Counted from the stretch's first letter, positions 6,052 to 64,000 are shown. The stretch: DNA of 64,000 nt from a bacterium (GCA_037141055.1 JBAXDH010000002.1:17057-81056), one strand, 5' to 3'. Notes: generated by a model from the letters alone, not told the origin. Translations and numbers: made by a program.

Positions 6052-6053
6052 TC

Positions 6054-16676: not shown

Positions 16677-16679
16677 AAA

Positions 16680-17576: not shown

Positions 17577-17590
17577 GTGGGTGGAAAGGC

Positions 17591-17622
17591 GTGAGTGGTG
17601 AGTCGTGAGTCGTGAGTGGTGA
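17591..17622. repeat. Heptamer tandem array GTGAGTS x4.5
   Basis: gtgagtg gtgagtc gtgagtc gtgagtg gtga, between the methyltransferase stop (17576) and the FtsX-like gene. The same family occurs at 38113-38136. Confidence 0.9.
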
Positions 17623-27629: not shown

Positions 27630-27665
27630 GATTGACGATTGGACGATTGACGGTTGACGATTTTC
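27630..27665. repeat. GATTGAC-family tandem array (5 units)
   Basis: gattgac gattggac gattgac ggttgac gattttc in the divergent manA/LOG spacer. Confidence 0.9.
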
Positions 27666-27745: not shown

Positions 27746-28339
27746 ATGATTAAAACCCTTTGTGTTTTCTGCGGTTCAAGTGTCGGACGACAGCCGCTGT
27801 ATTCGCATCATGCCGTTAAACTTGCCGAACACCTCCTTGCCGAAAAAATAACCCTGGTATACGGGGGAGCCAATGTCGGGCTGATGGGAATTCTTGCCGA
27901 TACGATGCTGGCCGGCGGCGGAAAAGTAATCGGGGTTATGCCCAAATCGCTTGTTGCACGCGAGGTTGCCCATGAGAACCTGACCGAAATGCACATCGTC
28001 GACGGGATGCAGGAACGCAAGGCACTGATGGCGAATCTGTCGGATGCTTTTGCCGCGCTTCCCGGTGCCTACGGAACACTCGACGAACTCTTCGAGGTAC
28101 TTACCTGGAACCAGCTCGGCATCATCAATAAACCCATCGGGTTGCTGAACATCGACAATTTTTTCAACCCCATGCTGCAGATGCTCGATCATATGGTGGC
28201 TGAAAAGTTCCTTCGCCCGGAACATCGCAGCATGCTGCTCTGCGGAAATGACTTTGCCGAATTGCTGAAGGAACTTGAGGAATACCGGCCTGTTGCTGCG
28301 GAGAAGTGGATTGAACGGTTGAAAGCCGGGGCAATTTAA
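27746..28339 (+). CDS. LOG-family (TIGR00730) nucleotide 5'-monophosphate nucleosidase
   Basis: The ORF-track start at 27632 is a TTG inside repeat 27630-27665. ATG 27746 gives MIKTLCVFCGSS. YGGANVGLMG and PGAYGTLDEL motifs are diagnostic of LOG proteins. Confidence 0.85.
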   Translation: MIKTLCVFCGSSVGRQPLYSHHAVKLAEHLLAEKITLVYGGANVGLMGILADTMLAGGGKVIGVMPKSLVAREVAHENLTEMHIVDGMQERKALMANLSDAFAALPGAYGTLDELFEVLTWNQLGIINKPIGLLNIDNFFNPMLQMLDHMVAEKFLRPEHRSMLLCGNDFAELLKELEEYRPVAAEKWIERLKAGAI

Positions 28340-28387
28340 TGCCAGCAATGCAAACAATGCAAGCAATGCAGACAATGCAGGAAATGG
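28340..28387. repeat. Nonamer tandem array TGCARNCAA x5
   Basis: tgccagcaa tgcaaacaa tgcaagcaa tgcagacaa tgcaggaaa tgg, starting immediately after the LOG stop codon (28337-28339). Confidence 0.9.
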
Positions 28388-28402
28388 TTTGGTTAGATTC
28401 TT

Positions 28403-28443
28403 TTTGATTTTTACAATTTGATTTTGCAATTTGATTTTTTGAT
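28403..28443 (+). promoter_or_regulatory. AT-rich TTTGATTTT(T)RCAA repeat abutting the kinase-like gene start
   Basis: tttgatttttacaa tttgattttgcaa tttgattttttgat is followed directly by ATG 28444. Its composition and position resemble 16713-16752. Confidence 0.45.
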
Positions 28444-38138: not shown

Positions 38139-39893
<1,755 letters not shown>

Positions 39894-39954
39894 GTGGAAA
39901 TTTTCGCTAAAGGTAATTTTTTTTCCAATGGGGCTGGTGTTGAATGAGTAAACA

Positions 39955-39980
39955 GGCGGACAGGCGGGCGGGCGGACAGG
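39955..39980. repeat. Octamer tandem array GGCGGACA-family x3.25
   Basis: ggcggaca ggcgggcg ggcggaca gg in the divergent permease/NAD(P)H-binding gene spacer. Confidence 0.85.
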
Positions 39981-46537: not shown

Positions 46538-46885
46538 TTATAGTAAGCCAAGTTCCAGGAGCGCGGATTCCGAAAGCATATCCTTGTCCCAGGGAGGTTC
46601 GAAGGTGAGTTCAACTTTCACCTCACCGACACCCTCCACCATCTTGACCGATTCGCGTACCTGCATGGGCATATCTTCAGCCACGGGGCAGTTGGGCGTG
46701 GTGAGGGTCATCAGGATATTCACATCATTGGTTTGCTCATCTATCTGCAGATTGTAGATCAATCCCATGTCATAAATGTTCACGGGGATTTCCGGGTCAA
46801 AAACCGACCTGAGTGCTGCGATGATTTTTGCCTCAAACGGGCTGTGATGAACTTGATTGCTGGATTCCACGATTTTTTTTTGCAA
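46538..46885 (-). CDS. DUF59 (SufT/MIP18-like) Fe-S cluster assembly protein
   Basis: 115-aa ORF with VFDPEIPVNIYDMGLIY and TLTTPNCPVAE blocks characteristic of DUF59. Confidence 0.8.
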   Translation of the reverse strand: MQKKIVESSNQVHHSPFEAKIIAALRSVFDPEIPVNIYDMGLIYNLQIDEQTNDVNILMTLTTPNCPVAEDMPMQVRESVKMVEGVGEVKVELTFEPPWDKDMLSESALLELGLL

Positions 46886-46933
46886 AGATAAAGCAATTAT
46901 GATTGACGAGCGGAGGATTCGCCAACAGACTTT

Positions 46934-47380
46934 CTATCTATTCAGTATAATCGGGCTGTTGACATCGCATACCGGCGGGCAAGGGCTCAGGCTCTGCGTA
47001 TCGGTGCTGTATATGGTGTTGCCGACTGCATCATTGCCGGCATTGTCGATCCCGACAACAATTCCGATCCTGTTCGAATTATTATCCTTTCCCATGTATA
47101 TCCTGAACCCGGTAAGACTTGCGTTTTCTGCCGCAATGCTGTTCATCGCACTCAGCTGGGCTTTGTCAATGGTAAACCCTTTGATCACCTGGTTGTACGC
47201 CGTCGCACCCGACAAATAATTGTTAAAGTAGCTGTGAGCCACGGCAGATGTAAGAGGGGTTATCCCCGGGGAAGGCATCGCCGGCGCACTTGTAAACGAC
47301 ATGAAACCGATGATCGAGATTCCGGAAACCATTCCCGTTAAAAACACCAGTGCCGTGAAAAAATATTTCTTTGTTTTCAT
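46934..47380 (-). CDS. Hypothetical membrane-anchored/secreted protein
   Basis: The ORF extends to 47428. ATG 47380 (MKTKKYFFTALVFLTG...) gives a signal/anchor. No recognisable domain. Confidence 0.45.
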   Translation of the reverse strand: MKTKKYFFTALVFLTGMVSGISIIGFMSFTSAPAMPSPGITPLTSAVAHSYFNNYLSGATAYNQVIKGFTIDKAQLSAMNSIAAENASLTGFRIYMGKDNNSNRIGIVVGIDNAGNDAVGNTIYSTDTQSLSPCPPVCDVNSPIILNR

Positions 47381-47508
47381 ATGATTTTTTATTTGGAATT
47401 GATTTAAATTAATATTAATTTTGCTCAAAGATAGTTGTTTATGATAAAATCACATAATTTTTTTTAGAAAAATTAACATAATTCATAATCATTAATTCCG
47501 GTGATCGG

Positions 47509-49335
47509 GTGGAAATTGTGAAAGAAAATTCAAAGGGCTTCCTTGCATTCCTGCTGCTGTTTATATTCCCGGTATCGGTACTCTACAGCCACGTCGATCA
47601 GGCCGGATATACCAGGATCTTGATTTCAGAGATCAGGGCCGCCGGGAACGACAGTGTGAAAATCAGCAAACTCGGCAGCCTTGCCTTCTTTTACCTCGAC
47701 TATGCCGGCAATGGCCGTTTAGCCGACAGTGTCAGCGAAACAGCCATCCGGCTTGCCGAGAAAAGTCACCGGCCCGAATTGCTGTTCCTTGCATATAACA
47801 TCTACGCCGAATCGAACGATCTGCACGAATTCAACCGGAAGGCGCTTGGCTATGCGTTGAAGGCGGAACAGATTCAGTTCAACGCAAAAAGTCCGGAACA
47901 GGTATTCCGTAATGATAAAAACCTGGTATCCGTTTTTCTGGCGGGCTACGGGTTCGACAAAGCCCTGGAGTACAGTTACAAGATGCTTTCGATAGCAGGA
48001 ACCTTGGAAAATGTTGAATTAAAGGCGGAAAGTTATCTCTCCATCGGGCAAAGCCTTGAAGGTAAAAGTCAGAAAGTTGAAGCCTTCCGAAACTACCTGA
48101 ACGCCGCAAGCCTTGCCGACAGGTCAGGCAACCTGGATTTAAGAATCATCTGCTGTTCCAGGCTGTCGGATTTCTACAACTTCAATAAGTTATACGACAA
48201 GGCTACCCGCTATAAATTGGTGCAGCGCGATCTGATTGTCAGGAACATGCCCGTAGATTCGGTTGCGCTGATGTGGGCGGAATATGAACTGCAGGTAATC
48301 GACCTCAATTCGAACTATAACGAGCTGTATGAAGGAAACATGAAGACCATTCTTGATTTCGCCGTGAGAAACAACCACAGGAGGATGCTGAACTATGAGA
48401 TTGCGCTGATTCGCACGCATTACATTGAAGCGAACAAAATAGTCCTACTGCATGATTTTTATTACAAAAAATTCCCGGGAGAACTTGCAAGGCTTTCTTC
48501 AGACAATCCCGCACTGTTTTTCCGGCTCAAGGCGTTTTTTTGCGAAGAGGAGCACATGCCTGATTCTGCGCTCTATTATTTCACCCTGGCCGAAACAAGA
48601 TTGCAATCCGATGCGAATCCGATCCTTCAATCGAAATTTTATTCCCGCTTCGGGCAGTTCCTCGTTCGGCACGGCTTCAGGGACAAAGCTATCGGGGCAT
48701 TTACAAAATCGATGGAGCTTGCCAGAACTGCATCCTATATTGAATACATGCTGGGCGCAGCCAAACAGCTTGAAGAATTGTACGCGGGCAAAGGAGATTA
48801 TAAAAATGCGTTCGCTTACTCCGTGTTAAACAAAGCGTTAAACGACAGCATCAGCAACATGTCGAAAAAGGATCAGTTGCTGATCATGGAAATCGACCAT
48901 GAAACCAGGCAGCGGGACCTTGCCTTTGAGCTGGAAAAACAGTCCACCGCAAGGAGGCACTATCTGCAATATACCGCCATGACCATCGGGATCCTGACCG
49001 TGTTTGTCATTCTGATCATGCTGGGCAGTTTAAAAGTTCCCGAATGGATCATCCGGATGCTGGGATTCTTCTCCTTTATCTTTCTGTTTGAATTCATTGT
49101 TTTGCTGGCTGACAAGATGATTGAAGAGATTACCCATGGCGAGCCCTGGAAAATACTGCTTATCAAGATATTCCTCATCGGAATCCTTCTTCCCCTTCAT
49201 CACAGCATTGAAAAGCGTGTCATCACGTACCTGCTTAACCACAAACTGATCAATATTCCCGGCTTTTCGATGGTAAAGAGGTTCAGGGCGCGGGGGAAGA
49301 AGAAGAAGTTAACGGGTGAAAAGGTGACAGGGTAA
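47509..49335 (+). CDS. TPR-like repeat protein with C-terminal transmembrane helices
   Basis: 608-aa ORF with a GTG start per the ORF track. It has N-terminal signal-like and helical repeat regions and three to four hydrophobic helices near the C-terminus. Its last codons and TAA stop (49333-49335) lie inside octamer array 49323-49410. Confidence 0.6.
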   Translation: MEIVKENSKGFLAFLLLFIFPVSVLYSHVDQAGYTRILISEIRAAGNDSVKISKLGSLAFFYLDYAGNGRLADSVSETAIRLAEKSHRPELLFLAYNIYAESNDLHEFNRKALGYALKAEQIQFNAKSPEQVFRNDKNLVSVFLAGYGFDKALEYSYKMLSIAGTLENVELKAESYLSIGQSLEGKSQKVEAFRNYLNAASLADRSGNLDLRIICCSRLSDFYNFNKLYDKATRYKLVQRDLIVRNMPVDSVALMWAEYELQVIDLNSNYNELYEGNMKTILDFAVRNNHRRMLNYEIALIRTHYIEANKIVLLHDFYYKKFPGELARLSSDNPALFFRLKAFFCEEEHMPDSALYYFTLAETRLQSDANPILQSKFYSRFGQFLVRHGFRDKAIGAFTKSMELARTASYIEYMLGAAKQLEELYAGKGDYKNAFAYSVLNKALNDSISNMSKKDQLLIMEIDHETRQRDLAFELEKQSTARRHYLQYTAMTIGILTVFVILIMLGSLKVPEWIIRMLGFFSFIFLFEFIVLLADKMIEEITHGEPWKILLIKIFLIGILLPLHHSIEKRVITYLLNHKLINIPGFSMVKRFRARGKKKKLTGEKVTG

Positions 49336-49410
49336 CAGGGGAACAGGGTAACAAGGTAACAGGGTAACAGGGTAACAGGGTAACAGGGTAACAGGGTAAC
49401 AGAGTGACGG
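49323..49410. repeat. Octamer tandem array GGTAACAG x11
   Basis: ggtgacag ggtaacag gggaacag ggtaacaa, then ggtaacag x6, then agtgacgg. The second unit provides the TAA stop of the TPR-like gene. Confidence 0.95.
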
Positions 49411-49460
49411 GGGAGCCGGCAAACTGATGACTATTGTATAATCCTGTGCCCTTGATCCCG

Positions 49461-49494
49461 TTCACTTGTCACTTGTCACTTGTCACGTTGTCAC
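49461..49494. repeat. Heptamer tandem array TTGTCAC x4 (reverse complement of the GTGACAA family)
   Basis: ttcac ttgtcac ttgtcac ttgtcac g ttgtcac. Same family as the hairpin arms at 5986-6051. Confidence 0.9.
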
Positions 49495-49530
49495 TAAATA
49501 TCAATCATTCACAAATAAACCATACTGCAT

Positions 49531-49653
49531 ATGAAAACAAAAATTGGAATCCTGGGATCGGGGGTGGTTGCGCAGGTGCTGGGCAGCGGATTCATGAAAC
49601 ACGGATATGACGTAATGCCTGGAACCCGCGATCTTTCAAAACTTGAAGGCTGA
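49531..49653 (+). pseudogene. Remnant (N-terminal 40 codons) of an NAD(P)-binding F420-dependent-NADP-reductase-like gene
   Basis: ATG 49531 to TGA 49651-49653 encodes MKTKIGILGSGVVAQVLGSGFMKHGYDVMPGTRDLSKLEG. This matches the Rossmann N-terminus of ~220-aa NADPH-dependent F420 reductase-family proteins. The rest of the gene is absent. Confidence 0.55.
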
Positions 49654-49665
49654 CAGGAAAGAGCC

Positions 49666-50088
49666 TCAGGCACCTTTCATTTTAAAGACTGTGGCGTAGA
49701 GTTTCATCTGTTTGATCATGGCCGACAAGCCGTTGCTGCGGGTGGGCGACAGGTGTTCCTGGAGCCCGATCCGGTTAATGAATTCCATCCTGGCTCCGAT
49801 AATGTCATCAGGGGTCTGGCCGGAAAGCACACTGATCAGGAGGTTTACTATACCTTTGGTGATAATTGCATCACTTTCGCCGGTAAATACCACCCGGCCC
49901 TCTTTCATTGCTGCATGAAGCCATACCTTTGACTGGCAGCCGGTAATCAGGTACTGATCGGTTCTATAACGGTCATCGATCTTTGGCAAAGTCTTTCCCA
50001 GGTCAATCAGGTAGTTATATTTATCCATCCAGTCGTCGAACATGTCGAACTCGGTGATAATCCTGGATTCTATTTCGGGGATGGTCAT
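49666..50088 (-). CDS. sufE: Cysteine desulfuration protein SufE
   Basis: 140-aa ORF with the conserved persulfide-acceptor context YLITGCQSKVWLHA. Confidence 0.85.
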   Translation of the reverse strand: MTIPEIESRIITEFDMFDDWMDKYNYLIDLGKTLPKIDDRYRTDQYLITGCQSKVWLHAAMKEGRVVFTGESDAIITKGIVNLLISVLSGQTPDDIIGARMEFINRIGLQEHLSPTRSNGLSAMIKQMKLYATVFKMKGA

Positions 50089-50206
50089 GGGGGTGTGGGT
50101 TTGGGGGGCAAAGGTAAGGAAAAGGAGGACAGGTCACTTGTCTGCTTTTTTTGTTAAAATATGTTAATTAATAGTACCATGTATTGCATAGTACTAAGTT
50201 TTGCAT

Positions 50207-50214
50207 TATATTTG
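50207..50214 (+). promoter_or_regulatory. -7 box TATATTTG 4 nt upstream of the padR ATG (possible leaderless transcript)
   Basis: The sequence reads TATATTTG-ccgc-ATG(50219). ATTG lies 20 nt upstream (50183-50186). Confidence 0.4.
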
Positions 50215-50218
50215 CCGC

Positions 50219-50569
50219 ATGAATACAGAAAATCAAAATGCCCAGATGCGAAAAGGAGTTCTCGAACTCTGTATCCTGGCGATCATCGCAGAACAGGACG
50301 CATACGCTTCCGACATCATCACCAGGTTGAAGGAAGCCAGACTCATTGTTGTGGAAGGAACCCTCTATCCTTTGCTCACACGATTAAAGAACGACGGACT
50401 GACGGTTTACCGGTGGGAGGAATCAAAGTCGGGACCGCCGCGCAAATATCACCAGGCAACTGAGCAGGGGCTGATAGCCCTGGCGGAACTGAAATCCGAC
50501 TGGCTGGACCTTGTCCTTTCGGTGGAGAAAATCGTCGGCATTCCACCAGGTAAGGCTGATGAAGCCTGA
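50219..50569 (+). CDS. PadR-family transcriptional regulator
   Basis: The ORF-track start is TTG 50201 and the first ATG is 50219. Winged-helix blocks KGVLELCILAII and EGTLYPLLTRLKNDGL..W......PRKYH are PadR signatures. Confidence 0.85.
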   Translation: MNTENQNAQMRKGVLELCILAIIAEQDAYASDIITRLKEARLIVVEGTLYPLLTRLKNDGLTVYRWEESKSGPPRKYHQATEQGLIALAELKSDWLDLVLSVEKIVGIPPGKADEA

Positions 50570-50613
50570 CGGGTTGGCAAATTTAGTTTACACAATTTCA
50601 ATTTATAATATCC

Positions 50614-52191
50614 ATGAAAAAAACATTGACAATAAACCTGGGTGGCATCGTTTTCCACATTGATGAAGACGCCTATACGCTTCTGAACCAGTACCTCGAG
50701 AAACTTAAAAACCATTTCAGCAGGGAGCAGGGATCGGATGAAATCCTCAACGACATAGAGGCGCGCATCGCTGAAATCCTGCAGGAAAAACAGTCGGAAA
50801 CGAAGCAGGTGATCACGATCGAAGATGTGAACGCTGTAATTGCCATCATGGGACAGCCGGTCGAGATTGACCAGGAAGAGGGTCCGAAAAAGCAGCAGGA
50901 TTCTCCCGGCAGCGAAAAAGGGGACAAACGGTTCTTCAGGAATCCCGACGAGAAAGTCATTGCAGGCGTGTGCTCGGGCATTGCCGCCTATTTTCACCTC
51001 GACCCGGTATGGGTGCGGCTGATTTTCCTCGTATTCATTGCAGCCGGAGGTTCCGGGATCCTGTTATACATTGTACTCTGGATTGTTATTCCTGAAGCAC
51101 AATCAACCACGGATAAACTTGAAATGAGGGGTAAAAAGATCAACATTTCCAACATTCAGCAATCCATGCGCGATGAGATATCCGACCTGGGCGGAAGGAT
51201 CGGCAGCATGGCCAGTGAATCCGCTTCAACCATCAGGCGGGCGGGTGCAGGATCGTCTTCGGTGTTCGAAGTGATCGGCAAAGGCGTTGCTGAAGTGCTG
51301 ACCTTTTTCTGGAAAGTACTGGTCATTTTAACCGGCATTATCCTGATCCTATTCGGCATCACCCTGCTCCTTGCGCTGGTTGCCTATACCCTCGGATGGA
51401 CCGGCGGCATTTATTCGGACAATGATTTTACAGTTCTGTCTTTCCCCTCCCTGGCAAAACTTCTGGTGGGATGCAACATGCCGGTGGTTTATCTCCAGCT
51501 GGTCATCCTGGTTGTTCTGGGGATTCCAGTCTTTATGATGTTTTACAACGGGCTGCGGATGGTATTTCGTTTCGACCGGATCAGGCATCTCGGGCTCACC
51601 ATGTTCAACATATGGCTTGTCGGACTATTCTTTCTCGCATGGTCGGCATTAAGGGTTTTCAACCTCTATAAATTTGAAGATGAAAAGCAGATTGAAATAG
51701 CACTCGTGCAACCAGCCTGCGACACCCTTTTTGTATCGCTGTTCCAGGATGATCCCGGGATGAAATATATTAAAGATGAACAGTACATGTTGCCCGGTGA
51801 ATGGAAAACCGTCATTACAGACGAACGGGAATTGTACGTGGTACCCAAAATAAGCATCGAAGAAGCCGGCGACAGCCTCTTCTCCATTTCGCAGGTCACA
51901 ATGGCACGCGGGAAATCGAGAATTGAAGCCCGTCAGCACCTTACCGGCGTCCGTTTTCAATCGGCAACTTCCGGGTCAACCCTGAGAATAAGCCCCTTTG
52001 CAAGGCTTCCCAGGGAAGAATGCTGGCGCGGACAGGTCGTCAACCTCACCCTCCGCGTTCCGAAAGGGAAATTCATTCATTTTGACAGGGAGTTTCAGTA
52101 CCTTCGGCCTTCCTGGCACTATATGCTGAGCGAATCGAAAGAATCGACCTTTCAGATGACCGACAGCGGTATTGAAGTCACTCCCAACTAA
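50614..52191 (+). CDS. PspC-domain membrane protein
   Basis: 525-aa ORF with PspC block FFRNPDEKVIAGVCSGIAAYFHLDPVWVRLIFLV followed by multiple TM helices. It lies immediately downstream of padR. Confidence 0.75.
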   Translation: MKKTLTINLGGIVFHIDEDAYTLLNQYLEKLKNHFSREQGSDEILNDIEARIAEILQEKQSETKQVITIEDVNAVIAIMGQPVEIDQEEGPKKQQDSPGSEKGDKRFFRNPDEKVIAGVCSGIAAYFHLDPVWVRLIFLVFIAAGGSGILLYIVLWIVIPEAQSTTDKLEMRGKKINISNIQQSMRDEISDLGGRIGSMASESASTIRRAGAGSSSVFEVIGKGVAEVLTFFWKVLVILTGIILILFGITLLLALVAYTLGWTGGIYSDNDFTVLSFPSLAKLLVGCNMPVVYLQLVILVVLGIPVFMMFYNGLRMVFRFDRIRHLGLTMFNIWLVGLFFLAWSALRVFNLYKFEDEKQIEIALVQPACDTLFVSLFQDDPGMKYIKDEQYMLPGEWKTVITDERELYVVPKISIEEAGDSLFSISQVTMARGKSRIEARQHLTGVRFQSATSGSTLRISPFARLPREECWRGQVVNLTLRVPKGKFIHFDREFQYLRPSWHYMLSESKESTFQMTDSGIEVTPN

Positions 52192-53408
52192 GTCAGCATC
52201 TCCTTCGCTTTGAGAATCGCCAAAACCAGCTGATCGATCTCTTCTGTTGTGTTGTAAAATGCAAACGAAGCCCTTACCGTTCCTGGGATTTTAAGGAAAT
52301 CCATCAGCGGCATGGCGCAATGGTGGCCGGTACGGACAGCTATTCCCATCTTGTCGATGATCATGCCCGCATCATAGGGATGTATGCCGCCGATAAGAAA
52401 TGAAACAAGGCTGGCTTTATTCGCAGACGTGCCATAGTATTTTATCCCGTCGACAACCGACAGTTTTTCAATGGCATATTGCAGCAGATGTTCTTCATAG
52501 GCAGCAATGTCGGCCATGCCAAGAGCCTGCAGGTAGGCAACGGCTGCCCTGAGCCCCGCAACGCCTTCCACATTCGGCGTTCCTGCCTCAAACTTAAACG
52601 GGAGTTCATTGAACGTGGTATGGTCAAGGTAAACATCTTTGATCATCTCCCCTCCCATCTGGTATGGGGGTAATTCTTCAAGGTACTTTTCCTTGCCGTA
52701 CAACACACCGGTGCCCATGGGTGCATACATTTTATGCCCCGAGAAACAATAGAAATCGCAGTCAAGATCCTGCATGTCGACCGGCAGGTGCGATACTCCC
52801 TGCGCCCCGTCGAGCAGCACCGGGATGTCATGCCGGTGTGCCAGTGCAATGATCTCCTTCACGGGATTGATGGTTCCCAGCACATTCGAAACATGCGTGA
52901 GGGCGACCAGCCTGGTTTTTTCGTTCAACAGGCCTTTCAATTCATCAGGATCAAGCTCTCCCTTTTCGTTGATCCCGAGCACACGCAATGTTGCCCCGCG
53001 TTCAAGGCACATCTGCTGCCATGGAACAAAATTGGAATGATGCTCCATGATGGTTGTGATCACTTCATCGCCTGTCTTGATATAACGTTTTCCAAAGGAG
53101 TAGGCTACAAGGTTCAGCGATTCGGTGGCGCCCTTGGTAAAAATGATCTCGCGGGTGTTTTTTGCATTGATGAACTGCCTGATCTCCTTGCGCGCCTCCT
53201 CGTATGCCTCCGTGGCCTTCACGCTCAGGTAATGCACGCCGCGGTGGATGTTGCAGTTGTCGTGTTCGTAGTAATGCCTGATCGCGTCAATGACCTGGCG
53301 GGGTTTCTGGGTCGAAGCCGCATTGTCGAAGTAAATGAGGGGGCGTTTATATACCTGCTGCTCCAAAATCGGAAAGTCAGCCCTTATCTTAGCAATATCA
53401 AAACTCAT
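52188..53408 (-). CDS. sufS: Cysteine desulfurase SufS (class V aminotransferase, group II)
   Basis: 406-aa ORF with FPILEQQVYKRPLIYFDNAAS, the PLP-lysine context FSGHKMYAPMG and the catalytic Cys context RTGHHCAMPL. Confidence 0.92.
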   Translation of the reverse strand: MSFDIAKIRADFPILEQQVYKRPLIYFDNAASTQKPRQVIDAIRHYYEHDNCNIHRGVHYLSVKATEAYEEARKEIRQFINAKNTREIIFTKGATESLNLVAYSFGKRYIKTGDEVITTIMEHHSNFVPWQQMCLERGATLRVLGINEKGELDPDELKGLLNEKTRLVALTHVSNVLGTINPVKEIIALAHRHDIPVLLDGAQGVSHLPVDMQDLDCDFYCFSGHKMYAPMGTGVLYGKEKYLEELPPYQMGGEMIKDVYLDHTTFNELPFKFEAGTPNVEGVAGLRAAVAYLQALGMADIAAYEEHLLQYAIEKLSVVDGIKYYGTSANKASLVSFLIGGIHPYDAGMIIDKMGIAVRTGHHCAMPLMDFLKIPGTVRASFAFYNTTEEIDQLVLAILKAKEMLT

Positions 53409-53614
53409 GATTCAGGTTTAATGTGCAAATTTAGCTGAATTTTTTCTCATACTCCTTAACTATCAGTCAAACCGACCGAACACGGCTCTGCGCCATTTTC
53501 ACAGTTCGGGCGATCGTACCAATACATTTCAGTACTTCAGTTCACTAAAGCGTACATCCGGAAATTTTTTGTAGTTTTATCTCCGAATAATCCACCTCTA
53601 AACCATCTGCCATC

Positions 53615-56419: not shown

Positions 56420-56462
56420 CATTTCTACGGGGCTATACTTCGACTGTTTTCAAATGCAATCC

Positions 56463-56496
56463 TTCATTGCAGTCAGCATTAGCTGACTGCAATGGA
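56463..56496. terminator. Strong hairpin downstream of the M16 peptidase gene
   Basis: ttcattgcagtcagc-atta-gctgactgcaatgga forms a 15-bp stem (one G-U) with a 4-nt loop, 44 nt after the stop at 56419. Two more GC hairpins follow: ggcccc-atc-ggggcc at 56520-56534, and an 8-bp stem (two G-U pairs) at 56569-56587. Confidence 0.65.
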
Positions 56497-56657
56497 TTCT
56501 GTGCCAACCCTTGTACCCCGGCCCCATCGGGGCCTCATTCTGGTAGCCCGCAGTTAACCTGGACCTTCTGCGCGCCGTAGGTGCGCGATTATTGTTATTC
56601 AGAGCCCTTGGTTATTCAATCCATTATGATTTTCTCACGAAGAAAATTGTATTTTGT

Positions 56658-56689
56658 TTTGCATATAGAACAATATTATAGTATATTTG
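56658..56689 (+). promoter_or_regulatory. Bacteroidota-type promoter (TTTG-N20-TATATTTG)
   Basis: The -33 TTTG at 56658-56661 and the -7 TATATTTG at 56682-56689 both match consensus with 20-nt spacing. It is 21 nt upstream of ATG 56711. Confidence 0.65.
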
Positions 56690-56710
56690 TACCACAAATA
56701 GAACAAAATA

Positions 56711-57961
56711 ATGAACAAGGACATTGTCAAGAAAATAATCCTGGAGAACCAGCAGCGTATTCCCGCGTTGTCAATAATAAAAAGGGACTATACTGTTGAT
56801 TTGGAAGCCAACTACATTTTCACCGGTCAGCGCAGGGCCGGTAAGACGTATTTTCTCTTCAGCCTGATCCGGGACATGATTAAACTTGGCACTTCCATTC
56901 AAACGGTGCTTTATATCAATTTTGAAGACGAAAGGCTGATCGGGTTCGATGTTTCGGAGTTCGATGGCATCCTGGAGAGTTACCAGGAGATGTTCGCCCA
57001 CAAACCAATACTGTTTTTTGATGAAATACAGATTATCGGCGGGTGGCAGAAATTTGTCAGGCGCATGGCCGACAGCGGTTTTAAAATCCATATAACCGGA
57101 AGTAATTCGGAGATGCTCAGTAGTGAAATGGCTTCAACTTTGGGAGGAAGGTTTATGGTGATGGAGATTGAAACCTTATCATTTAAGGAATTCCTGTTGT
57201 TTCATGGAGTTGTCCCGGAAGCGAACCTTGAATTCTCACCCGGAAGGTTTGAGGTGATACGATTGTACGAACAGTATTTCTCGCAAGGCGGATTTCCCGA
57301 GCTCATTAAATTCAATGAAAAGAAAGAAAACCTGAGCAATCTCTTTCAGAAAGTTTTTCTCGGCGATATTATTGCACGTTACCAGGTAAGGAATCCTTAT
57401 GCATTGCGCCTGCTGATCAAAAAACTGGCTGAGAGTACGATGGATGAAGTTTCGTATACACGGATGCGGAATATTTTAATCTCAACAGGCTCACAGGTTG
57501 GCACAGCTACTTTGATTGAATATGTAAAGTATCTTGACGAAACTTTTCTGATCAGTCCGCTGCTCAATTTCAATGCAAAAATCAGCAGCCGGGAAGCGAA
57601 GAAAAAGTACTATTTCAGAGACAATGGGTTGTTATCGTTGTTTCTGATAGAACCCGCATCATTTCAGCTTGCAACTTTGGTTTTTAATACGTTGCGTAAA
57701 AGTTACGGGGCCAGCCTTTTCTATCTTCGCAATGGTTATGAAATTGACTTTTTTATTCCCGGTGAAGCCTTGATCCAGGTGTGCTACAGTCTGAGTGAAC
57801 CGGCTACACGGAAGCGTGAAACCTCTGCCCTGCTTCAGGCATTTGCTAAAAACCCGGTTAAAAACCTGTTCATTATTACTTATCAAACGGAAGAAGTCCT
57901 TGTTGAACACGGTGTCAATATCCATGTAATTCCTGCATGGAAGTGGCTGCTGCGGGAGTGA
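56711..57961 (+). CDS. AAA-type ATPase with DUF4143 C-terminal domain
   Basis: 416-aa ORF with Walker A GQRRAGKTYF and Walker B ILFFDEIQ. The layout matches AAA_14 + DUF4143 proteins. A consensus TTTG-N20-TATATTTG promoter lies upstream. GC looks lower than in flanking genes. Confidence 0.8.
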   Translation: MNKDIVKKIILENQQRIPALSIIKRDYTVDLEANYIFTGQRRAGKTYFLFSLIRDMIKLGTSIQTVLYINFEDERLIGFDVSEFDGILESYQEMFAHKPILFFDEIQIIGGWQKFVRRMADSGFKIHITGSNSEMLSSEMASTLGGRFMVMEIETLSFKEFLLFHGVVPEANLEFSPGRFEVIRLYEQYFSQGGFPELIKFNEKKENLSNLFQKVFLGDIIARYQVRNPYALRLLIKKLAESTMDEVSYTRMRNILISTGSQVGTATLIEYVKYLDETFLISPLLNFNAKISSREAKKKYYFRDNGLLSLFLIEPASFQLATLVFNTLRKSYGASLFYLRNGYEIDFFIPGEALIQVCYSLSEPATRKRETSALLQAFAKNPVKNLFIITYQTEEVLVEHGVNIHVIPAWKWLLRE

Positions 57962-58265
57962 TGCTTTCTCTTTTAACAGTCAGCCCGAATATGATGCCAT
58001 CAACAGGCGGTTGGCCGGGAAAATCTCCCTGGCTGATCATGCTCGCGACGATAAATTCTTTCATGTATCGGACCATCCAATTCGAAAGCGGGTATCCCGA
58101 ATTGCAAGACAATTGTAAATCAGTTTTAAGAAATTGTGAAGAAAATTTCCTGGTTTCTGGTATTACCTTTTAGCAAAAATCCGGATTAAGCAGAAAGTAC
58201 AATTTGGTTTCTACAGATGAAATTGAACAGTTACCTGTCTTATTTGCGACCTCAAACCGGAAAAT

Positions 58266-58781
58266 ATGCAAAATTCATTGATAAAGTCTGATTATCAGAC
58301 ATTAATATACGAATTTCGAGGATATAAAGTCATGCTTGACTTTGACTTAAGTACACTTTACAGCGTTGAAACCAAGCGGCTCAAAGAACGTGTGAGGCGC
58401 AATCTGTCAAGGTTTCCGGAAGATTTCATGTTCGAACTCAGCATCGATGAGTTTGAATCTTTGAGGACGCAAATTGCGTCCTCAAAGCGGGGAGGAAGCA
58501 GATATGTTCCAATGGCTTTTACAGAACAGGGTGTTGCGATGCTTTCAACAGTCCTGAATTCTGAAAAAGCGATTCAGGTAAACATTGAGATCATGAGAGC
58601 TTTCGCCAATTACAGGGCATTATTGGTCGACAGCAAAGATTTCAGGCGGGAGTTGAAAGGGCTTGACGATAAAATAACCCAGATTTTCAAGTTTCTTCTG
58701 GAAAAGATTGATGCACTCAGTCAGAAGCACATCAATACCCAACGCAAGAAAATGGGTTATAGAAGAAAAGATGAAGAATAG
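58266..58781 (+). CDS. ORF6N-domain (KilA-N-like) DNA-binding protein
   Basis: 171-aa ORF. YKVMLDFDLSTLYSVETKRLKERVRRNLSRFPEDFMFELS is the canonical ORF6N block. Confidence 0.75.
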   Translation: MQNSLIKSDYQTLIYEFRGYKVMLDFDLSTLYSVETKRLKERVRRNLSRFPEDFMFELSIDEFESLRTQIASSKRGGSRYVPMAFTEQGVAMLSTVLNSEKAIQVNIEIMRAFANYRALLVDSKDFRRELKGLDDKITQIFKFLLEKIDALSQKHINTQRKKMGYRRKDEE

Positions 58782-58782
58782 T

Positions 58783-60600
58783 CTATAACTTGTGCTCTTC
58801 CTCAAGGATAATCCCCATATTTTTCATCAGGAATGAGGCATTGAGGTTGCGGCAAACGCCCGGTGAAAGTTTGTAGTCGATTTCCATTTTGTCGCCGGTG
58901 ATCCGGATCTCAAAACAGAGGTTCCTGATGTTTTCAGGATAATGGTTGACCAGTTCACCCAGGGCAAGATCATGGGTGGCAAACAATCCGGCAAGTTTGT
59001 ATTTCATCAGTTGCCTGATCAGGGCGATCGATCCGGTTTGTTTATCGGAGGAGTTGGTTCCCTTTAGGATCTCATCCAGCAGTATAAGCTTTTCCCGGCC
59101 GGCTTCGAGGTCGGTGATGATCTCCTTCAGCCGCCTCAGTTCGGCATAGAAGTATGATTCCCGCTTTGCCAGCGAATCATTTGTGCGGATGCTGCTGTGA
59201 ATTTCAATGGGATAAAAAATGAGTTTTTCAGCAAAAACAGGGGCCCCGGTCATGGCCAGCAGCAAATTGGTACCGATGGTGCGCAGGAAGGTACTTTTCC
59301 CCGACATATTGGCCCCGGTGATGATGCGGAACTGGTTCCAGCCCGTGATGTCAATGTCGTTGGTGACGCATATTTCCGATGAGATAAGCGGATGCCCGAT
59401 CTTTTCCGCGATGAACTGAAACCTGTCGCTCACGGGCACCGGGTAAGCATAACCCGGATTATTGAATGCATAGGTTCCGAGGCTGGAAAGCGCGTCGAAT
59501 TCGGCCAGGATCGCAAACCATTCCGGCACCAGGTTGCGGTTAGCAACTCGCCATTTCTCCACTGCCATCAACACATGAATATTGAACATGAACAACCCGT
59601 TCATGATCACCGAAACCAGCAGGTTGAGGTTGGCATCCATCATGTTCAGCAGTTCCGACAGCCGTTTGATCAGTTTACCCGGTATCATCCCCGCCTTCGG
59701 GGAAAGACCATCCTGCAGTTTCCTGTTAAACTCCGCCGCGAATGTTGTTTCAGTTGCGAGTGTCAGTGCCATGGCATATTTTCTAAGGATATCAACCTGT
59801 GAAGTGACTGCCTGGTGAACGGCCATGGCTTTGCGGCCGTAAGCAAAAACGACCATCAATTGCAGCAATACCATGAAAACTGGAAACTGGACGGGTATGA
59901 TTCCGAAAGCCGACAACAGGATTGAGCCTGATGTAACAGCAGGAAGCAGGAATGACAATACTTTCACGTACCGGGCACCCGGCATGCCCGAAGGGTCATT
60001 CAGCCAGTCTTTGAGGGCGGCCAGATCCACCAGCGAGGTTTGCTCCTCCACGAAGATCAGCTGAAGTTTCTGCCGGAATTCAATATCAGCCGCAAGTTCT
60101 GCAACCGCCTGCTGACGGGCCCGAATTTCATCCCTGTATGAATATGCACGGCTGAAATAATCGGCCAGTTTTTCCTTCCCGAAAACGGTGGAAGTCCGGT
60201 TCAGATACTGGAACAACGAACCCGTTCCGAAGATATCGAGGTCGAACGTATACGGGTGCTCCTGGCTGACAAATTCATTCCCGGGATTAAACGCTGAAAA
60301 ATCATGTTGCAATGCAGGCAATTCCTGTTCATTGATTTTAATCATGCGTTGAAGCCGGAGAATTTTCCGTTTCAGGATGGTATCGTACCAGCCGGCAGCC
60401 AGGAAACCGCCGAAGAATGATACTGACGAAACAATAAAAAAAAGTCCCGGGAATTTAAATGCATAAAAGATGGAAAAGCCGGTAAGGATAAAAAGTGTCA
60501 ATCGGAGCCATGGTATCCAGCGGAGTGGTTTTCGCAACCGGTCGATCCCGGCGGAAAATCCAGCTATACGTTGCATATAAATGGATACAAGGGTGCTCAT
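58783..60600 (-). CDS. MutS-related ATPase (MutS domain III/V only) with N-terminal transmembrane helices
   Basis: The ORF extends to 60696 and overlaps sufD. ATG 60600 lies 22 nt downstream of the sufD stop. Walker A GANMSGKSTFLRTIG and Walker B LILLDEILKGTN. There is no mismatch-recognition domain. Two hydrophobic helices lie near the N-terminus (LTLFILTGFSIFYAF, LFFIVSSVSFFGGFLAAGW). Confidence 0.8.
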   Translation of the reverse strand: MSTLVSIYMQRIAGFSAGIDRLRKPLRWIPWLRLTLFILTGFSIFYAFKFPGLFFIVSSVSFFGGFLAAGWYDTILKRKILRLQRMIKINEQELPALQHDFSAFNPGNEFVSQEHPYTFDLDIFGTGSLFQYLNRTSTVFGKEKLADYFSRAYSYRDEIRARQQAVAELAADIEFRQKLQLIFVEEQTSLVDLAALKDWLNDPSGMPGARYVKVLSFLLPAVTSGSILLSAFGIIPVQFPVFMVLLQLMVVFAYGRKAMAVHQAVTSQVDILRKYAMALTLATETTFAAEFNRKLQDGLSPKAGMIPGKLIKRLSELLNMMDANLNLLVSVIMNGLFMFNIHVLMAVEKWRVANRNLVPEWFAILAEFDALSSLGTYAFNNPGYAYPVPVSDRFQFIAEKIGHPLISSEICVTNDIDITGWNQFRIITGANMSGKSTFLRTIGTNLLLAMTGAPVFAEKLIFYPIEIHSSIRTNDSLAKRESYFYAELRRLKEIITDLEAGREKLILLDEILKGTNSSDKQTGSIALIRQLMKYKLAGLFATHDLALGELVNHYPENIRNLCFEIRITGDKMEIDYKLSPGVCRNLNASFLMKNMGIILEEEHKL

Positions 60601-60622
60601 AGTGGCATTATTCGCAGCTCCT

Positions 60623-62032
60623 TTATATTCTGCTGAGGTCGATCTGAAACTCCACCGGGTGTTCCGGCGTACTGCAGTGAAGCACACATTGTTCACAAAT
60701 CTGGAGCTCCCCCTGCAGCCGTTTTTTCACCATATCTTCGATCCGCTGACGAAGTTGCGGGATGGCGATCTTCTTCACGATCTCATCGGCAAATGCGAAC
60801 ATCAGCAACATGCGGGCGGTTTCCTCGCCGATGCCTCGCTGGCGCAGGTAGAACATGGCATCCTGGTCGAGCTGGCCGGTTGTGGAACCATGCGAGCATT
60901 TTACATCGTCGTTGTATATCTCCAGGAACGGCTTCGAGTTCACCCTGGCAGTATCGGTGAGCAAAATATTCTTATTGCTCTGGCGGGCATCGGTCTTCAC
61001 GGCGTTGCGTCGAACCAGCACGTGACCGTTGAAGATTGCGTGCGCATGTTCATCCAGGATTCCCTTGAATGTTTCATTGCTGGTGCAACCGGGAAAAGCA
61101 TGATCAATAAAAACGTTGTTGTCGACATGTTGCCTGCCGTCCATGAGATAAATGCCAAAAATATTTGCATTCCCTTGCGGGCCGTTGAAATGCACCCTGA
61201 TGTTGTTCCGGATCAGTCTGCCATTGAGCGAGATATAATGCGACTCCAGGTTTGAAGATGCCCCGAGGCGGAAGTACACCGAGCTGATAAGCGTACTGTT
61301 GTTGTTGAGATTCTGAAGTTTGTAATGATCCATCACTCCATTTTCGCCAACATGGATTTCCGTCACAATGTTCGAAAAACTGGCCTGGTGATTATACGAA
61401 TCATCGCAGTGGACCAGTGAAAGCTTTGCATTGGCACCAACCACGATAAGGTTGCGCGACTGCAGGAAAAGGTTCTCATCATGGTGAATCACATTGATGA
61501 GCTGCACAGGTTTCGGGCTTTTCACATTGTCGGGAACGTAGATGAACACCCCGTCAAGTGCAAATGCCGTATTCAGTGCTGTGAAACCTTCAACGGCATC
61601 ATCGGCAATGGTTCCATAATACTTTTCAATCAGCTGAGGATATTTCTTTCTGGCTTCGGCCAGGCTTCCCATGATGATCCCGTTGCCAAGTTCCATCAGC
61701 GGGACATCTTTTGAAACATACCAGCCATTCAACAAGCCGATTACGGCCGTATCGAGGTGCGGGATGTTGCAGCGGAAAACCTTTTGGGCGTCAACCTCCT
61801 CAAAGGGATTCAGATGATAATCATATCCGTGCCTGAAGCTTTCTTCAAGATTGGTCAGACGCCAGGATTCAATACCGGTACCCGGGAAACCCAGTTTTGA
61901 AAACGAATCAAACGCCTTCTCACGGATTCCGGCAAGGGCCGCCGTATCATTTATTGCCAGGGACTTCCTGTTCTTTTCGAACAGGCCGATAAACCTTTCC
62001 GCAGTGATTGTTTCTTTGGTTTGGGGTTGCAT
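60623..62032 (-). CDS. sufD: Fe-S cluster assembly protein SufD
   Basis: 469-aa ORF. The C-terminal beta-helix block (KCSHGSTTGQLDQDAMFYLRQRGI) and its position after sufC support the call. Confidence 0.88.
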   Translation of the reverse strand: MQPQTKETITAERFIGLFEKNRKSLAINDTAALAGIREKAFDSFSKLGFPGTGIESWRLTNLEESFRHGYDYHLNPFEEVDAQKVFRCNIPHLDTAVIGLLNGWYVSKDVPLMELGNGIIMGSLAEARKKYPQLIEKYYGTIADDAVEGFTALNTAFALDGVFIYVPDNVKSPKPVQLINVIHHDENLFLQSRNLIVVGANAKLSLVHCDDSYNHQASFSNIVTEIHVGENGVMDHYKLQNLNNNSTLISSVYFRLGASSNLESHYISLNGRLIRNNIRVHFNGPQGNANIFGIYLMDGRQHVDNNVFIDHAFPGCTSNETFKGILDEHAHAIFNGHVLVRRNAVKTDARQSNKNILLTDTARVNSKPFLEIYNDDVKCSHGSTTGQLDQDAMFYLRQRGIGEETARMLLMFAFADEIVKKIAIPQLRQRIEDMVKKRLQGELQICEQCVLHCSTPEHPVEFQIDLSRI

Positions 62033-62049
62033 TGCTCACGTATTTACCT

Positions 62050-62089
62050 CACCCCCCGGCCCCCTCTCCCACGGGAGAGGGGGAGGGTG
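62050..62089. repeat. GC-rich palindromic element in the sufC-sufD spacer
   Basis: cccccTCTCC-cacg-GGAGAggggg forms a 10-bp stem (62060-62069 with 62074-62083). An outer caccc/gggtg pairing (62050-62054 with 62085-62089) flanks it. Confidence 0.8.
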
Positions 62090-62091
62090 TG

Positions 62092-62844
62092 CTACTTTTG
62101 TTCTTGTTTTATCCAGTCGTACCCTTTTTCCTCGAGTTCGAGCGCCAGTTCTTTTCCGCCTGATTTAACGATCTTCCCTTCGAAAAGCACATGAACAAAG
62201 TCAGGCACGATGTAATCGAGCAGGCGCTGGTAATGGGTGATGACCACGAAGGCATTGTCGCTGCGGCGGAGTTTGTTCACGCCATTGGCAACAATGCGAA
62301 GTGCATCAATATCAAGTCCTGAATCGGTTTCATCCAGGATGGCCAGCATGGGTTCGAGCATGGCCATCTGGAAAATTTCATTCTTTTTCTTTTCACCCCC
62401 TGAAAATCCCTCATTTACAGAGCGGTTGGTAAGGTTTGAAGTGATCTCAACGAGCCTTTTCTTTTCTTCCATCAGGCGGAGAAAATCACCGGCGGGCAAC
62501 GGATCAAGGCCTTTGAACTTACGCACCTCATTCACTGCCGTGCGCATAAAGTTGGTGATGCTGACGCCGGGAATTTCCACCGGGTACTGGAATCCCAGGA
62601 ATATCCCCTCCCGGGCGCGGTCTTCGATGGATAGCTTCTGCAGGTCTTTCCCCTGGTAGAGAATTTCCCCGGCCGTAACATCAAACACTTCCCGGCCGGC
62701 TATCACTGAAGCCAGTGTGCTTTTCCCGGTTCCGTTCGGGCCCATGATGGCGTGTACTTCGCCTTTGTTCACCTCCAGGTTGACTCCCCGGAGAATTTCT
62801 TTGCCGTTGATGCTGGCGTGAAGATTTTTAATTTGTAGTAGCAT
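62092..62844 (-). CDS. sufC: Fe-S cluster assembly ATPase SufC
   Basis: ATG 62844 gives MLLQIKNLHASING. Walker A GPNGTGKST, signature FSGGEKK, Walker B AILDETDSGLD. Confidence 0.93.
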   Translation of the reverse strand: MLLQIKNLHASINGKEILRGVNLEVNKGEVHAIMGPNGTGKSTLASVIAGREVFDVTAGEILYQGKDLQKLSIEDRAREGIFLGFQYPVEIPGVSITNFMRTAVNEVRKFKGLDPLPAGDFLRLMEEKKRLVEITSNLTNRSVNEGFSGGEKKKNEIFQMAMLEPMLAILDETDSGLDIDALRIVANGVNKLRRSDNAFVVITHYQRLLDYIVPDFVHVLFEGKIVKSGGKELALELEEKGYDWIKQEQK

Positions 62845-62850
62845 GTAAAT

Positions 62851-62881
62851 AAATTCAAAATGCAAAAATAAAAATGCAAAG
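62851..62881 (-). promoter_or_regulatory. AT-rich TTTGCATTTTGAA-family element immediately upstream of sufC
   Basis: The minus-strand reading is ctttgcatttttatttttgcattttgaatttatttac, followed by ATG 62844. It shares the 16-mer TTTGCATTTTGAATTT with 16713-16752. Confidence 0.5.
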
Positions 62882-62882
62882 A

Positions 62883-62903
62883 CCTCTCCCCCCGGGGGTG
62901 AGG
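62883..62903 (-). terminator. GC hairpin in the sufB-sufC spacer followed (on the minus strand) by a U-rich tract; attenuator/terminator-like
   Basis: cctcTcccccc/gggggTgagg is a palindrome with one T-T mismatch, directly after the sufB stop (62904). On the coding strand it is followed by TCTTTGCATTTTTATTTTTG. Confidence 0.5.
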
Positions 62904-64000
62904 TTAACCAACACTCCCTTCGAGCGAAATTGACAATAGTTTCTGTGCTTCCACCGCGAATTCCATGGGAAGCTGTTTCAACACTTCTTTCGCGTAGCCG
63001 TTAACGATCAGGCCGATGGCACTTTCGGCCGAAATTCCACGCTGCTGACAGTAAAAAAGCTGGTCTTCTGAAATTTTCGAAGTGGTTGCTTCATGCTCCA
63101 CGATCGATGATTTATTGTCTACCTGGATATAAGGAAAAGTATGTGCCCCGCAACTGGCGCCCAGCAGCAGGGAATCGCACTGACTGTAATTTCGCGAATT
63201 AACGGCGTTCTTCGAAATCCGGACCAGCCCGCGGTATGAATTGTTGCTCTTTCCTGCTGAAATTCCTTTGGAAATGATAGTGCTCCTGGTGTTCTTGCCA
63301 AGATGCATCATTTTCGTGCCGGTATCGGCCTGCTGGTGGTTGTTGGTAACTGCAACCGAATAAAACTCGCCCACCGAATGATCACCCAGCAGGATGCAGC
63401 TTGGGTATTTCCAGGTGATGGCCGATCCGGTTTCAACCTGTGTCCAGCTGATCTTGGAATTGCTTCCCTTGCAGATCCCACGTTTTGTTACGAAATTGTA
63501 TATCACCCCGACCCCGTTTTTATCACCGGGATACCAGTTCTGAACTGTCGAATATTTCACTTCGGCATCCTTCATCGCCACAATCTCGACGATGGCGGCA
63601 TGAAGCTGGTTTTCATCACGCTGCGGCGCGGTACAGCCTTCCATATAACTCACATACGCCCCTTCTTCGGCCACGATCAGCGTGCGCTCAAACTGCCCGG
63701 TATTGGCGGCATTGATGCGAAAATAGGTCGAAAGTTCCATGGGGCAGCGAACTCCTTTAGGAATAAAACAGAATGAGCCATCACTGAAAACCGCGGAGTT
63801 AAGGGCTGCAAAATAGTTGTCGGTATGCGGAACCACCGAACCCATGTATTGTTTTACCAGGTCGGGATGGTTTTGAACCGCCTCGCTGAAGGAACAAAAG
63901 ATGATTCCATGCTTTGAGAGTGTTTCGGAAAAGGTGGTTTTGACCGAAACGCTGTCGATCACAGCATCCACTGCCACACCGGCCACACCCGCCAGTTTTT
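62904..64000 (-). CDS. sufB: Fe-S cluster assembly scaffold SufB (partial; N-terminus lies beyond the window end)
   Basis: The ORF is open to the window edge. Conserved SufB C-terminal blocks are present ([36 protein letters not shown]). The ORF-track start at 63986 is internal. Confidence 0.93.

Follow-up and report, generated by a model that had tools for sequence, protein, structure and literature searches.

Likely splitting of an ancestral suf operon by lineage-specific gene insertions in an uncultured member of the Bacteroidales

Introduction

In Escherichia coli the canonical SUF operon is sufABCDSE. We analysed the SUF iron-sulfur (Fe-S) cluster assembly locus held in a stretch of 64,000 nucleotides (nt) of bacterial DNA (GCA_037141055.1 JBAXDH010000002.1:17057-81056; this whole stretch is called the window below, and coordinates are counted from its first letter). 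The host is an uncultured Prolixibacteraceae-like member of the Bacteroidales. Its locus is like the canonical one in gene set and order, with the SufBC2D scaffold genes, the SufS/SufE sulfur donor pair and DUF59/SufT, but unlike the canonical operon it is predicted to form no longer one transcription unit. Unrelated genes separate sufD from sufS, sufS from sufE and sufE from sufT (junctions D|S, S|E and E|T), and we argue that these genes were probably inserted into an operon that had been compact.

Operon death by insertion has been described before, for example for ptr, whose insertion split the ancestral E. coli operon recCBD (Price, Arkin & Alm, 2006, PMC1480536). The suf locus is similar in that the genes of a conserved ancestral operon have been retained as neighbours with unrelated genes between them. 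The operon is conserved in more than one outgroup lineage, being found in at least eight distant Bacteroidota loci, and its genes remain near one another, separated by genes that are absent from the outgroup locus. Unlike ptr/recCBD, suf was hit at three junctions, with many alternative contents in one family and in nested layers. The fragments were transcribed separately in the case described by Price et al., whereas for suf this is predicted only from opposite-strand inserts and promoter boxes.

A second precedent is provided by gene-turnover hotspots that lie between core genes, have recombining flanks and lack recognisable mobile elements (Oliveira et al., 2017, PMC5635113). Like these, the suf locus combines fixed core-gene intervals with high accessory turnover that includes candidate defence genes, with no integrase or transposase detected, and one related locus (L090) gives a hint of flanking-gene mosaicism, the differences being small. 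The published hotspots are within-species and stand out by a genome-wide statistical excess of transferred genes, whereas our comparison is between species and without a genome-wide baseline. Both phenomena are thus already known; the suf locus is a new multi-junction example in an essential operon.

Results

Open reading frames (ORFs) were listed and scanned against Pfam and NCBIfam, and all suf genes were found on the minus strand in the canonical order. The identities, coordinates and strand given in the original prediction, which had been made from the sequence alone, were upheld.

62904 to beyond 64000, minus strand: sufB, 3' 364 codons (SUFBD_core PF01458, 6e-78)
62092-62844 (or 62865), minus strand: sufC, ABC ATPase, 250 amino acids (aa) as called (PF00005, 4e-22)
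60623-62032, minus strand: sufD (PF01458, 3e-80; TIGR01981, 263.8 bits against a cut-off of 222)
52188-53408, minus strand: sufS, group II cysteine desulfurase (TIGR01979, 595.8 against a cut-off of 475.1)
49666-50088, minus strand: sufE, sulfur acceptor (PF02657, 1e-46, score 157.7 against 27)
46538-46870 (or 46885), minus strand: sufT/DUF59 (PF01883, 5e-22, score 78.4 against 23.5)
44609-46528: dxs, 9 nt downstream of sufT and attached there throughout the family

Judged by the full-length SufB of relatives, about 121 N-terminal codons of sufB lie outside the window; the window SufB is 98% identical to that of relative L007, in which the start is 363 nt further upstream. SufC is 95-97% identical to the proteins at the sufC position of the nearest relatives, and its place between sufB and sufD is conserved. 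Against the equivalog model TIGR02945, sufT scored 140.5, slightly under the cut-off of 143.4, and its position after sufE is kept in outgroups. No sufA was found in the region of the window examined. The gaps between suf genes measure 7,214 bp (D|S), 2,099 bp (S|E) and 2,780 bp (E|T), in agreement with the 7.2, 2.1 and 2.8 kb proposed earlier, and they hold the following genes.

58783-60600, minus strand: MutS-related ATPase, 605 aa, with MutS_III and MutS_V only
58332-58781, plus strand: ORF6N-domain protein, anti-repressor-like (PADLOC candidate PDC-S05, PDLC04856, 9.4e-52)
56711-57961, plus strand: AAA_14/DUF4143 ATPase, here AAA14 (PADLOC candidate PDC-S01, PDLC04787, 1.3e-84)
53615-56419, plus strand: double M16 (insulinase-type) peptidase, 934 aa, divergent from sufS (Pfam)
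50614-52191, plus strand: PspC-domain membrane protein with a toast-rack C-terminus (Pfam)
50246-50569, plus strand: PadR-family regulator, 107 aa
49531-49653, plus strand: remnant of an F420-dependent NADP oxidoreductase-type gene, first ~40 codons (PF03807), W41-to-stop
47509-49335, plus strand: TPR-like membrane protein, 608 aa
46934-47380, minus strand: hyp164, hypothetical protein of 148 aa with an N-terminal hydrophobic segment

These contents had been described correctly overall, with four corrections. The MutS-related gene does not overlap sufD, since its likeliest start is at 60600, 22 nt past the sufD stop. The PadR-family frame is 50246-50569 and not the ORF at 50161-50463. The TPR-like protein has no Pfam match of its own and only weak direct matches, to TTC29 and FimS; its label is carried by TPR_12 matches in most homologues. 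Fourth, what had been called a gene remnant is identified as the start of the oxidoreductase-type gene, ending in a stop codon. The repeat arrays reported between sufE and sufT are present.

To polarise these differences we compared the locus with those of relatives. A SufS scan with one genome per GTDB species returned 80 loci with flanks of up to 10 kb (numbered with an L below), about 27 of which came from the Prolixibacteraceae/Draconibacterium-like group, the family considered here, with SufS 67-88% identical to that of the window. Window proteins were mapped onto the loci by tblastn and leftover ORFs were clustered. The expectation that the suf genes form one operon elsewhere was borne out by compact clusters both in outgroups and in several family members. 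Contiguous sufB-C-D-S-E-sufT was found in at least eight distant Bacteroidota (L031, L032, L034, L035, L064, L074, L078, L083), and contigs labelled as other phyla carried contiguous sufBCDS. Within the family, L019 is compact right to dxs, and L020, L013, L022 and L027-L029 are compact at most junctions. Spacers in compact loci are 10-100 nt long, and the family spacer lengths are similar to the outgroup ones. The interrupted layout is therefore neither ancestral nor universal. Nor are the suf genes scattered in relatives: order is kept with few exceptions, namely L023, which has sufT-dxs in inverted orientation ahead of sufB, and four loci in which sufBCD lies more than 10 kb from sufS.

Interruptions were concentrated at the same three junctions that are split in the window, where occupancy varied among the 28 family loci as follows.

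D|S, split in 21/28 family loci, at least nine different contents: MutS-related gene alone; M16 alone; both; both with AAA14-ORF6N; a protein sorted by the type IX secretion system (T9SS); T9SS-sorted protein with AAA14; a TPR-glycosyltransferase-acyltransferase trio; a 758-aa unknown protein; a DUF2142/GT2 cluster of more than 10 kb
S|E, split in 13/21 loci, six contents: padR-pspC with or without a 23S-rRNA-IVS-type gene; DUF3795; amylase; another AAA14/DUF4143 gene
E|T, split in at least 10/15 loci, about eight contents, including: F420-type oxidoreductase; TPR pair; histidine kinase; membrane protein; M23 with DUF3089

Against this variety, no gene interrupted sufB|sufC or sufC|sufD in any of the loci compared, and sufT|dxs was interrupted once (L018).

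A tree of SufS proved too unresolved to polarise events and was replaced by a neighbour-joining tree of concatenated SufB, SufC, SufD and SufS. There the compact loci are basal and fall outside the clade of the window (W), (L023,((L024,L012),(L010,(W,(L007,L008))))), which has bootstrap values of 84-99% and holds most split forms. The sharing of inserts narrows in steps, from M16, padR-pspC and the MutS-related gene through the TPR pair to AAA14 (shared with one species) and ORF6N (with none). This pattern supports an accumulation of inserts in layers of different age, the first three named being those that the nearest species also have.

We then asked how the separated genes might be expressed. 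TAnnTTTG has been published as the -7 consensus for the primary sigma factor in Bacteroidota (PMC7366714). Of 41 such sites in the window, 14 fall, in the right orientation, between 10 and 60 nt ahead of a predicted start, a zone that makes up 1.9% of strand positions; this corresponds to an approximately 18-fold enrichment (P = 1e-14), so that the motif is informative in this genome. A sigma-70 promoter scan, tried before TAnnTTTG was adopted, was uninformative (27 sites against 24.3 expected), the Bacteroidota consensus being different. Perfect boxes precede sufS, sufE, hyp164 and sufT, and likewise padR, AAA14 and sufC.

53426-53433, minus strand: TAAATTTG, predicted sufS -7 box, first base 25 nt before the ATG
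50109-50116, minus strand: TACCTTTG, predicted sufE -7 box, first base 28 nt before the ATG
47426-47433: TATCTTTG, box of hyp164
46883-46890, minus strand: TATCTTTG, predicted sufT -7 box, the second such box after that of hyp164
62863-62870, minus strand: TATTTTTG, box in the sufB|sufC spacer, 19 nt before the sufC ATG
50207-50214: TATATTTG, box of padR
56682-56689: TATATTTG, box ahead of AAA14

Boxes were also counted within 100 nt upstream of suf genes in the family loci and four outgroups. Every suf gene with a divergent foreign upstream neighbour had one (22/22), against 6/31 contiguous suf genes (Fisher P = 1.6e-9); with a same-strand foreign neighbour upstream the figure was 12/20. Before sufS and sufE the box usually starts 24-28 nt from the ATG, even where the remaining spacer is unalignable.

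With several inserts on the opposite strand, transcription starting at the sufB promoter should no longer be able to run through to the downstream suf genes. The MutS-related gene is on the same strand as sufD, 22 nt behind it and without a -7 box of its own, from which we infer co-transcription with sufBCD. The locus would then comprise about four suf units: sufBCD with the MutS-related gene; sufS alone; sufE alone; and hyp164-sufT-dxs with an extra sufT promoter, dxs presumably being co-transcribed with sufT. This agrees, at the level of sequence, with the at least three or four transcription units originally proposed. The box before sufC is a possible internal promoter. A terminator scan at the unit ends gave nothing convincing except hairpins after M16.

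The promoter and operator of sufB in this genome lie beyond the end of the window and were approached through relatives. In at least nine of these a 16-bp palindrome, AGGYATTNNAATRCCT, stands directly 5' of the sufB -7 box TATCTTTG, followed by a conserved leader of about 75 nt with an apparently covarying hairpin and a further box, TAGATTTG, 25 nt ahead of the ATG.

L007:1277-1385; L008:1310-1417; L013:6113-6223; and 10 other relatives: sufB upstream palindrome/leader (not in the window)

The palindrome occurs in one copy per suf locus and is absent near sufS, sufE and sufT. A search of Rfam, covering the window and the sufB leaders of L007 and L013, matched no known RNA family. Palindrome and leader are probably an operator and leader of suf expression in the family, in which case the split-off units would have lost direct coupling to the sufB operator.

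Turning to the individual inserts, the MutS-related gene is also found at the suf locus of L004, L007, L008, L010, L024, L026 and L085. A metagenome scan with this protein gave one locus only, and its context was taken from a homologue search and contig look-ups; homologues of up to 58% identity sit in unrelated gene contexts. Against L004, identity is only 69% for the MutS-related protein of the window, compared with 85% for M16 and 88% for SufS. The MutS-related protein may be either unusually fast-evolving or exchanged. M16 is present at the suf locus of L004, L005, L007, L008, L021, L023 and L030. The ptr gene mentioned above also belongs to the M16 peptidase family, which for the insert at suf is a coincidence.

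ORF6N was found in this species only, among the loci fetched. The AAA14 gene of the window is shared outside its species with L090 only, with 88% identity, at the same junction and in a different context. Both are candidate defence genes by their PADLOC models. They lie in the bin with the lowest GC content of the window (56401-58800, 0.419; other 2.4-kb bins 0.457-0.548), and their insertion is marked on the M16-proximal side by a hairpin.

56467-56492, plus strand: perfect hairpin just past the M16 stop; L004 has a similar hairpin between its M16 and MutS-related genes

Across species, AAA14/DUF4143 genes occupy five different suf-locus positions (window 56711-57961; L090:764-2020; L017, between sufS and sufE; L029:16737-17876; P0125 contig). 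The gene appears to behave like a mobile or fast-turnover accessory gene, and no recombinase was seen near it.

At S|E, the padR-pspC pair is common to ten loci, and in the window pspC overlaps the 3' end of the convergent sufS by 4 nt. A 17-nt repeat/inverted repeat, TAGTAC...GTACTA, occupies 50171-50206 between the divergent padR and sufE promoters and is kept in L005, L007, L008 and L010. It is probably a PadR operator, and if so PadR may influence sufE expression. Genes of the 23S-rRNA-IVS type (PF05635, four-helix bundle) lie at padR|sufE in four relatives and at sufE|sufT in one outgroup.

L009:7131-7499; L011:13418-13798; L023:13343-13723; L034:11786-12187; P0125 contig: 23S-rRNA-IVS-type genes

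Their proteins share just 46-54% identity and both orientations are found, which suggests repeated, independent insertion. The arrays around them are inverted 8-nt repeats in L011 and L023 and more complex, with mixed orientation, in L009.

At E|T, the oxidoreductase remnant matches the intact L009 gene at 70% identity across codons 1-56, the stop falling at codon 41, and its deletion junction lies directly against the sufE stop. L009, L011, L023 and one more relative carry an intact copy at this position, and L005 has lost the gene. The TPR gene and hyp164 form a divergent pair that is also found at the suf locus in L005, L009 and the P0125 contig. In distant relatives the pair is a conserved unit at another genomic site, so it appears to have moved into the suf locus as a block.

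49323-49402: tandem array GGTAACAG x10, overlapping the last codons of the TPR ORF
49462-49495: tandem array TCACTTG x4.7, in the spacer from the TPR gene 3' end to the oxidoreductase remnant

Because the first array starts within the last TPR codons (49323-49335), gain or loss of repeat copies would change or lengthen the C-terminus.

Discussion

We consider it about 80% probable that an ancestral compact suf operon was split by lineage-specific gene insertions into about four predicted units. The ancestor would have been a tight sufB-C-D-S-E-sufT(-dxs) operon. D|S would have gained the MutS-related ATPase and the M16 peptidase, with AAA14/DUF4143 and ORF6N added later; S|E would have gained padR-pspC; and E|T would have gained the F420-type oxidoreductase gene, afterwards truncated, and the translocated TPR/hyp164 pair. 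The sufBCD core would have stayed free of gene interruption, and each downstream unit would be preceded, about 12-50 nt from its start codon, by a separate sigma-A type TAnnTTTG -7 box and would lack the sufB palindrome. The serial insertions originally proposed are thus supported by synteny and tree, but insertion is not the whole history, which also includes deletion (oxidoreductase), block translocation (TPR pair), cassette turnover (AAA14, ORF6N) and probably exchange between relatives.

Several points weigh against this reading. The Fisher test treats loci as independent despite their shared ancestry, and since the spacers of compact loci are short and leave little room for a motif, the contrast is partly built in. 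Contiguous loci with a box do occur (L020 for sufS; L006, L018, L024, L031 and L032 for sufE), so promoters may predate the insertions, sometimes making an insertion tolerable. All promoters considered here are motif predictions, and the palindrome evidence comes from relatives, the window lacking its own sufB upstream region. The inner nodes of the tree are weakly supported, and it is a simple neighbour-joining tree of four proteins from contigs of metagenome-assembled genomes (MAGs). Finally, the MutS-related gene and M16 are distributed as a mosaic, with one, both or neither of them in a given locus and the MutS-related gene in L026 too, which requires several losses or exchange between relatives.

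The last point bears on a tentative alternative to which we give less than even odds, namely that cassettes were exchanged at a recombination hotspot, with suf genes serving as homology arms and junction variants swapped between related species. The mosaic just described follows the tree only partly. Furthermore L090, the closest SufS relative (89.7%), carries a T9SS-sorted protein and AAA14 at D|S, and combines a SufD nearest that of L009 (87.2%; window 83.6%) with a SufS N-terminus nearest that of the window; its T9SS-sorted protein is likewise L009-like and its AAA14 window-like. Mosaic and chimeric-looking L090 together weakly suggest that junction variants were exchanged between relatives. 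No integrase or transposase Pfam match was found among the window insert genes or the representative insert genes scanned in relatives, and marker-free hotspots with recombining flanking core genes are documented (PMC5635113). However, the identity differences amount to 3-6 points, the SufS and SufBCD trees disagree nowhere with good support, and the data are mostly species-level MAGs rather than strains. Exchange would in any case be a mechanism of gain and turnover, compatible with splitting of the operon by insertion.

It is unlikely that the MutS-related ATPase, M16 and PadR-PspC were selected into the locus for Fe-S assembly or stress regulation. Such recruitment would account for the MutS-related gene following sufD closely on the same strand in at least eight species, including L085 at 61% identity, for the conserved divergent promoter region that M16 and sufS share in at least eight species, and for the conserved operator-like repeat between the divergent padR and sufE. 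Each insert is, however, absent from some close relatives, the distant MutS-related homologues adjoin unrelated genes, the association is found in no outgroup, and the same junctions hold glycosyltransferases, an amylase, a histidine kinase or a T9SS-sorted protein elsewhere. Given this variable occupancy, the unrelated contexts of homologues and the unrelated functions at the same junctions, the inserts are probably not functionally linked to suf, though M16, by the promoter region it shares with sufS, and the MutS-related gene, by its apparent co-transcription with sufBCD, may be exceptions.

We also think it doubtful that the suf junctions are preferred landing sites of small integrase-less cassettes (AAA14/DUF4143, 23S-rRNA-IVS-type), reached through tandem arrays or promoter-proximal sequence; if they were, an unrecognised mobility mechanism would be able to dismantle essential operons.

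It is very improbable that the family inherited the interrupted layout from its ancestor and that compact clusters arose by deletion of the intervening genes. Deletion does happen here, as the oxidoreductase remnant and the loss of this gene in L005 attest, and formation of operons by deleting intervening genes was described by Price et al. (PMC1480536). But all distant Bacteroidota sampled are compact, as is sufBCDS in the contigs labelled as other phyla, the compact family members are basal in the tree, and many independent, precise deletions would be needed, each leaving short outgroup-like spacers. An assembly or binning artefact, in which chimeric contigs join suf fragments from different places, has in its favour that the source is a MAG and that at least one related contig (L017) is probably mis-binned, but it can be dismissed because the same layout recurs in three independent assemblies of this species from different samples (L001-L003), and sub-arrangements are common to several other species.

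Splitting of the suf operon by insertion would offer a clean natural series in which a stoichiometry-sensitive essential operon is dismantled stepwise, with fine-grained intermediates. The SufBCD scaffold genes stay together, and the links to sufS, sufE and sufT tolerate interruption. If expression data agree, comparing matched species with compact and with split loci could help to ask what Fe-S assembly gains from operon linkage; the same series, if confirmed, could show whether internal promoters precede or follow insertion.

Additional observations

In L026 an inverted repeat of 0.45-0.6 kb, 95% identical (2888-3494 / 9352-9928), surrounds sufBCD and the MutS-related gene and could mediate inversion of the bracketed segment. 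Taxonomic labels were at odds with content for L017 (SACF01000053.1), L033, L053 and L063. L017 is labelled Alphaproteobacteria; its SufS is 79% identical to the Bacteroidales clade and its synteny nearly identical to that of L018.

No tRNA genes were found in the window. The suggestion that insert boundaries might coincide with repeats or hairpins was generally not borne out, and searches there for direct or inverted repeats (target-site duplications, miniature inverted-repeat transposable elements) gave chance-level short matches only. Tandem arrays of 7-8 nt were considered as marks of cassette boundaries and dropped, since they are found between housekeeping genes window-wide and once inside a permease ORF.

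62035-62090, minus strand: GC-rich hairpin CCCTCCCCCTCTCCCGTGGGAGAGGGGGCCGGGGGGTGAGG between sufC and sufD, -31.9 kcal/mol, no T-run
62851-62880, minus strand: degenerate heptamer array AAATGCA x4.3 in the sufB|sufC spacer
5987-6052, 16679-16750, 17562-17622, 27630-27662, 28338-28439 and 39952-39980: further arrays of the window

The sufC-sufD hairpin is found only in the window, L007, L008 and L009; in other relatives the stop and start codons at this place overlap or adjoin. Part of the hairpin recurs in inverted form in the sufB|sufC spacer (62891-62907). Arrays with units of 7-9 nt are frequent in intergenic spacers of this genome and its relatives. At sufB|sufC the unit varies by species (L008-L027: TTTACGA, CAATGAC, CACCCGTT, ATGTGGTA, GTGCTGAT and others), and related units recur at several spacers of one genome. 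The arrays resemble the heptamer arrays known from some Bacteroidota, Cyanobacteria and Beggiatoaceae (PMC4679880). One array, GATACGG x7.4 at 38369-38421, lies inside an amino-acid-permease-like ORF (38139-39893, minus strand), where it encodes a repeated ...PVSRIPYPISRIP... stretch and has thus been absorbed into coding sequence.

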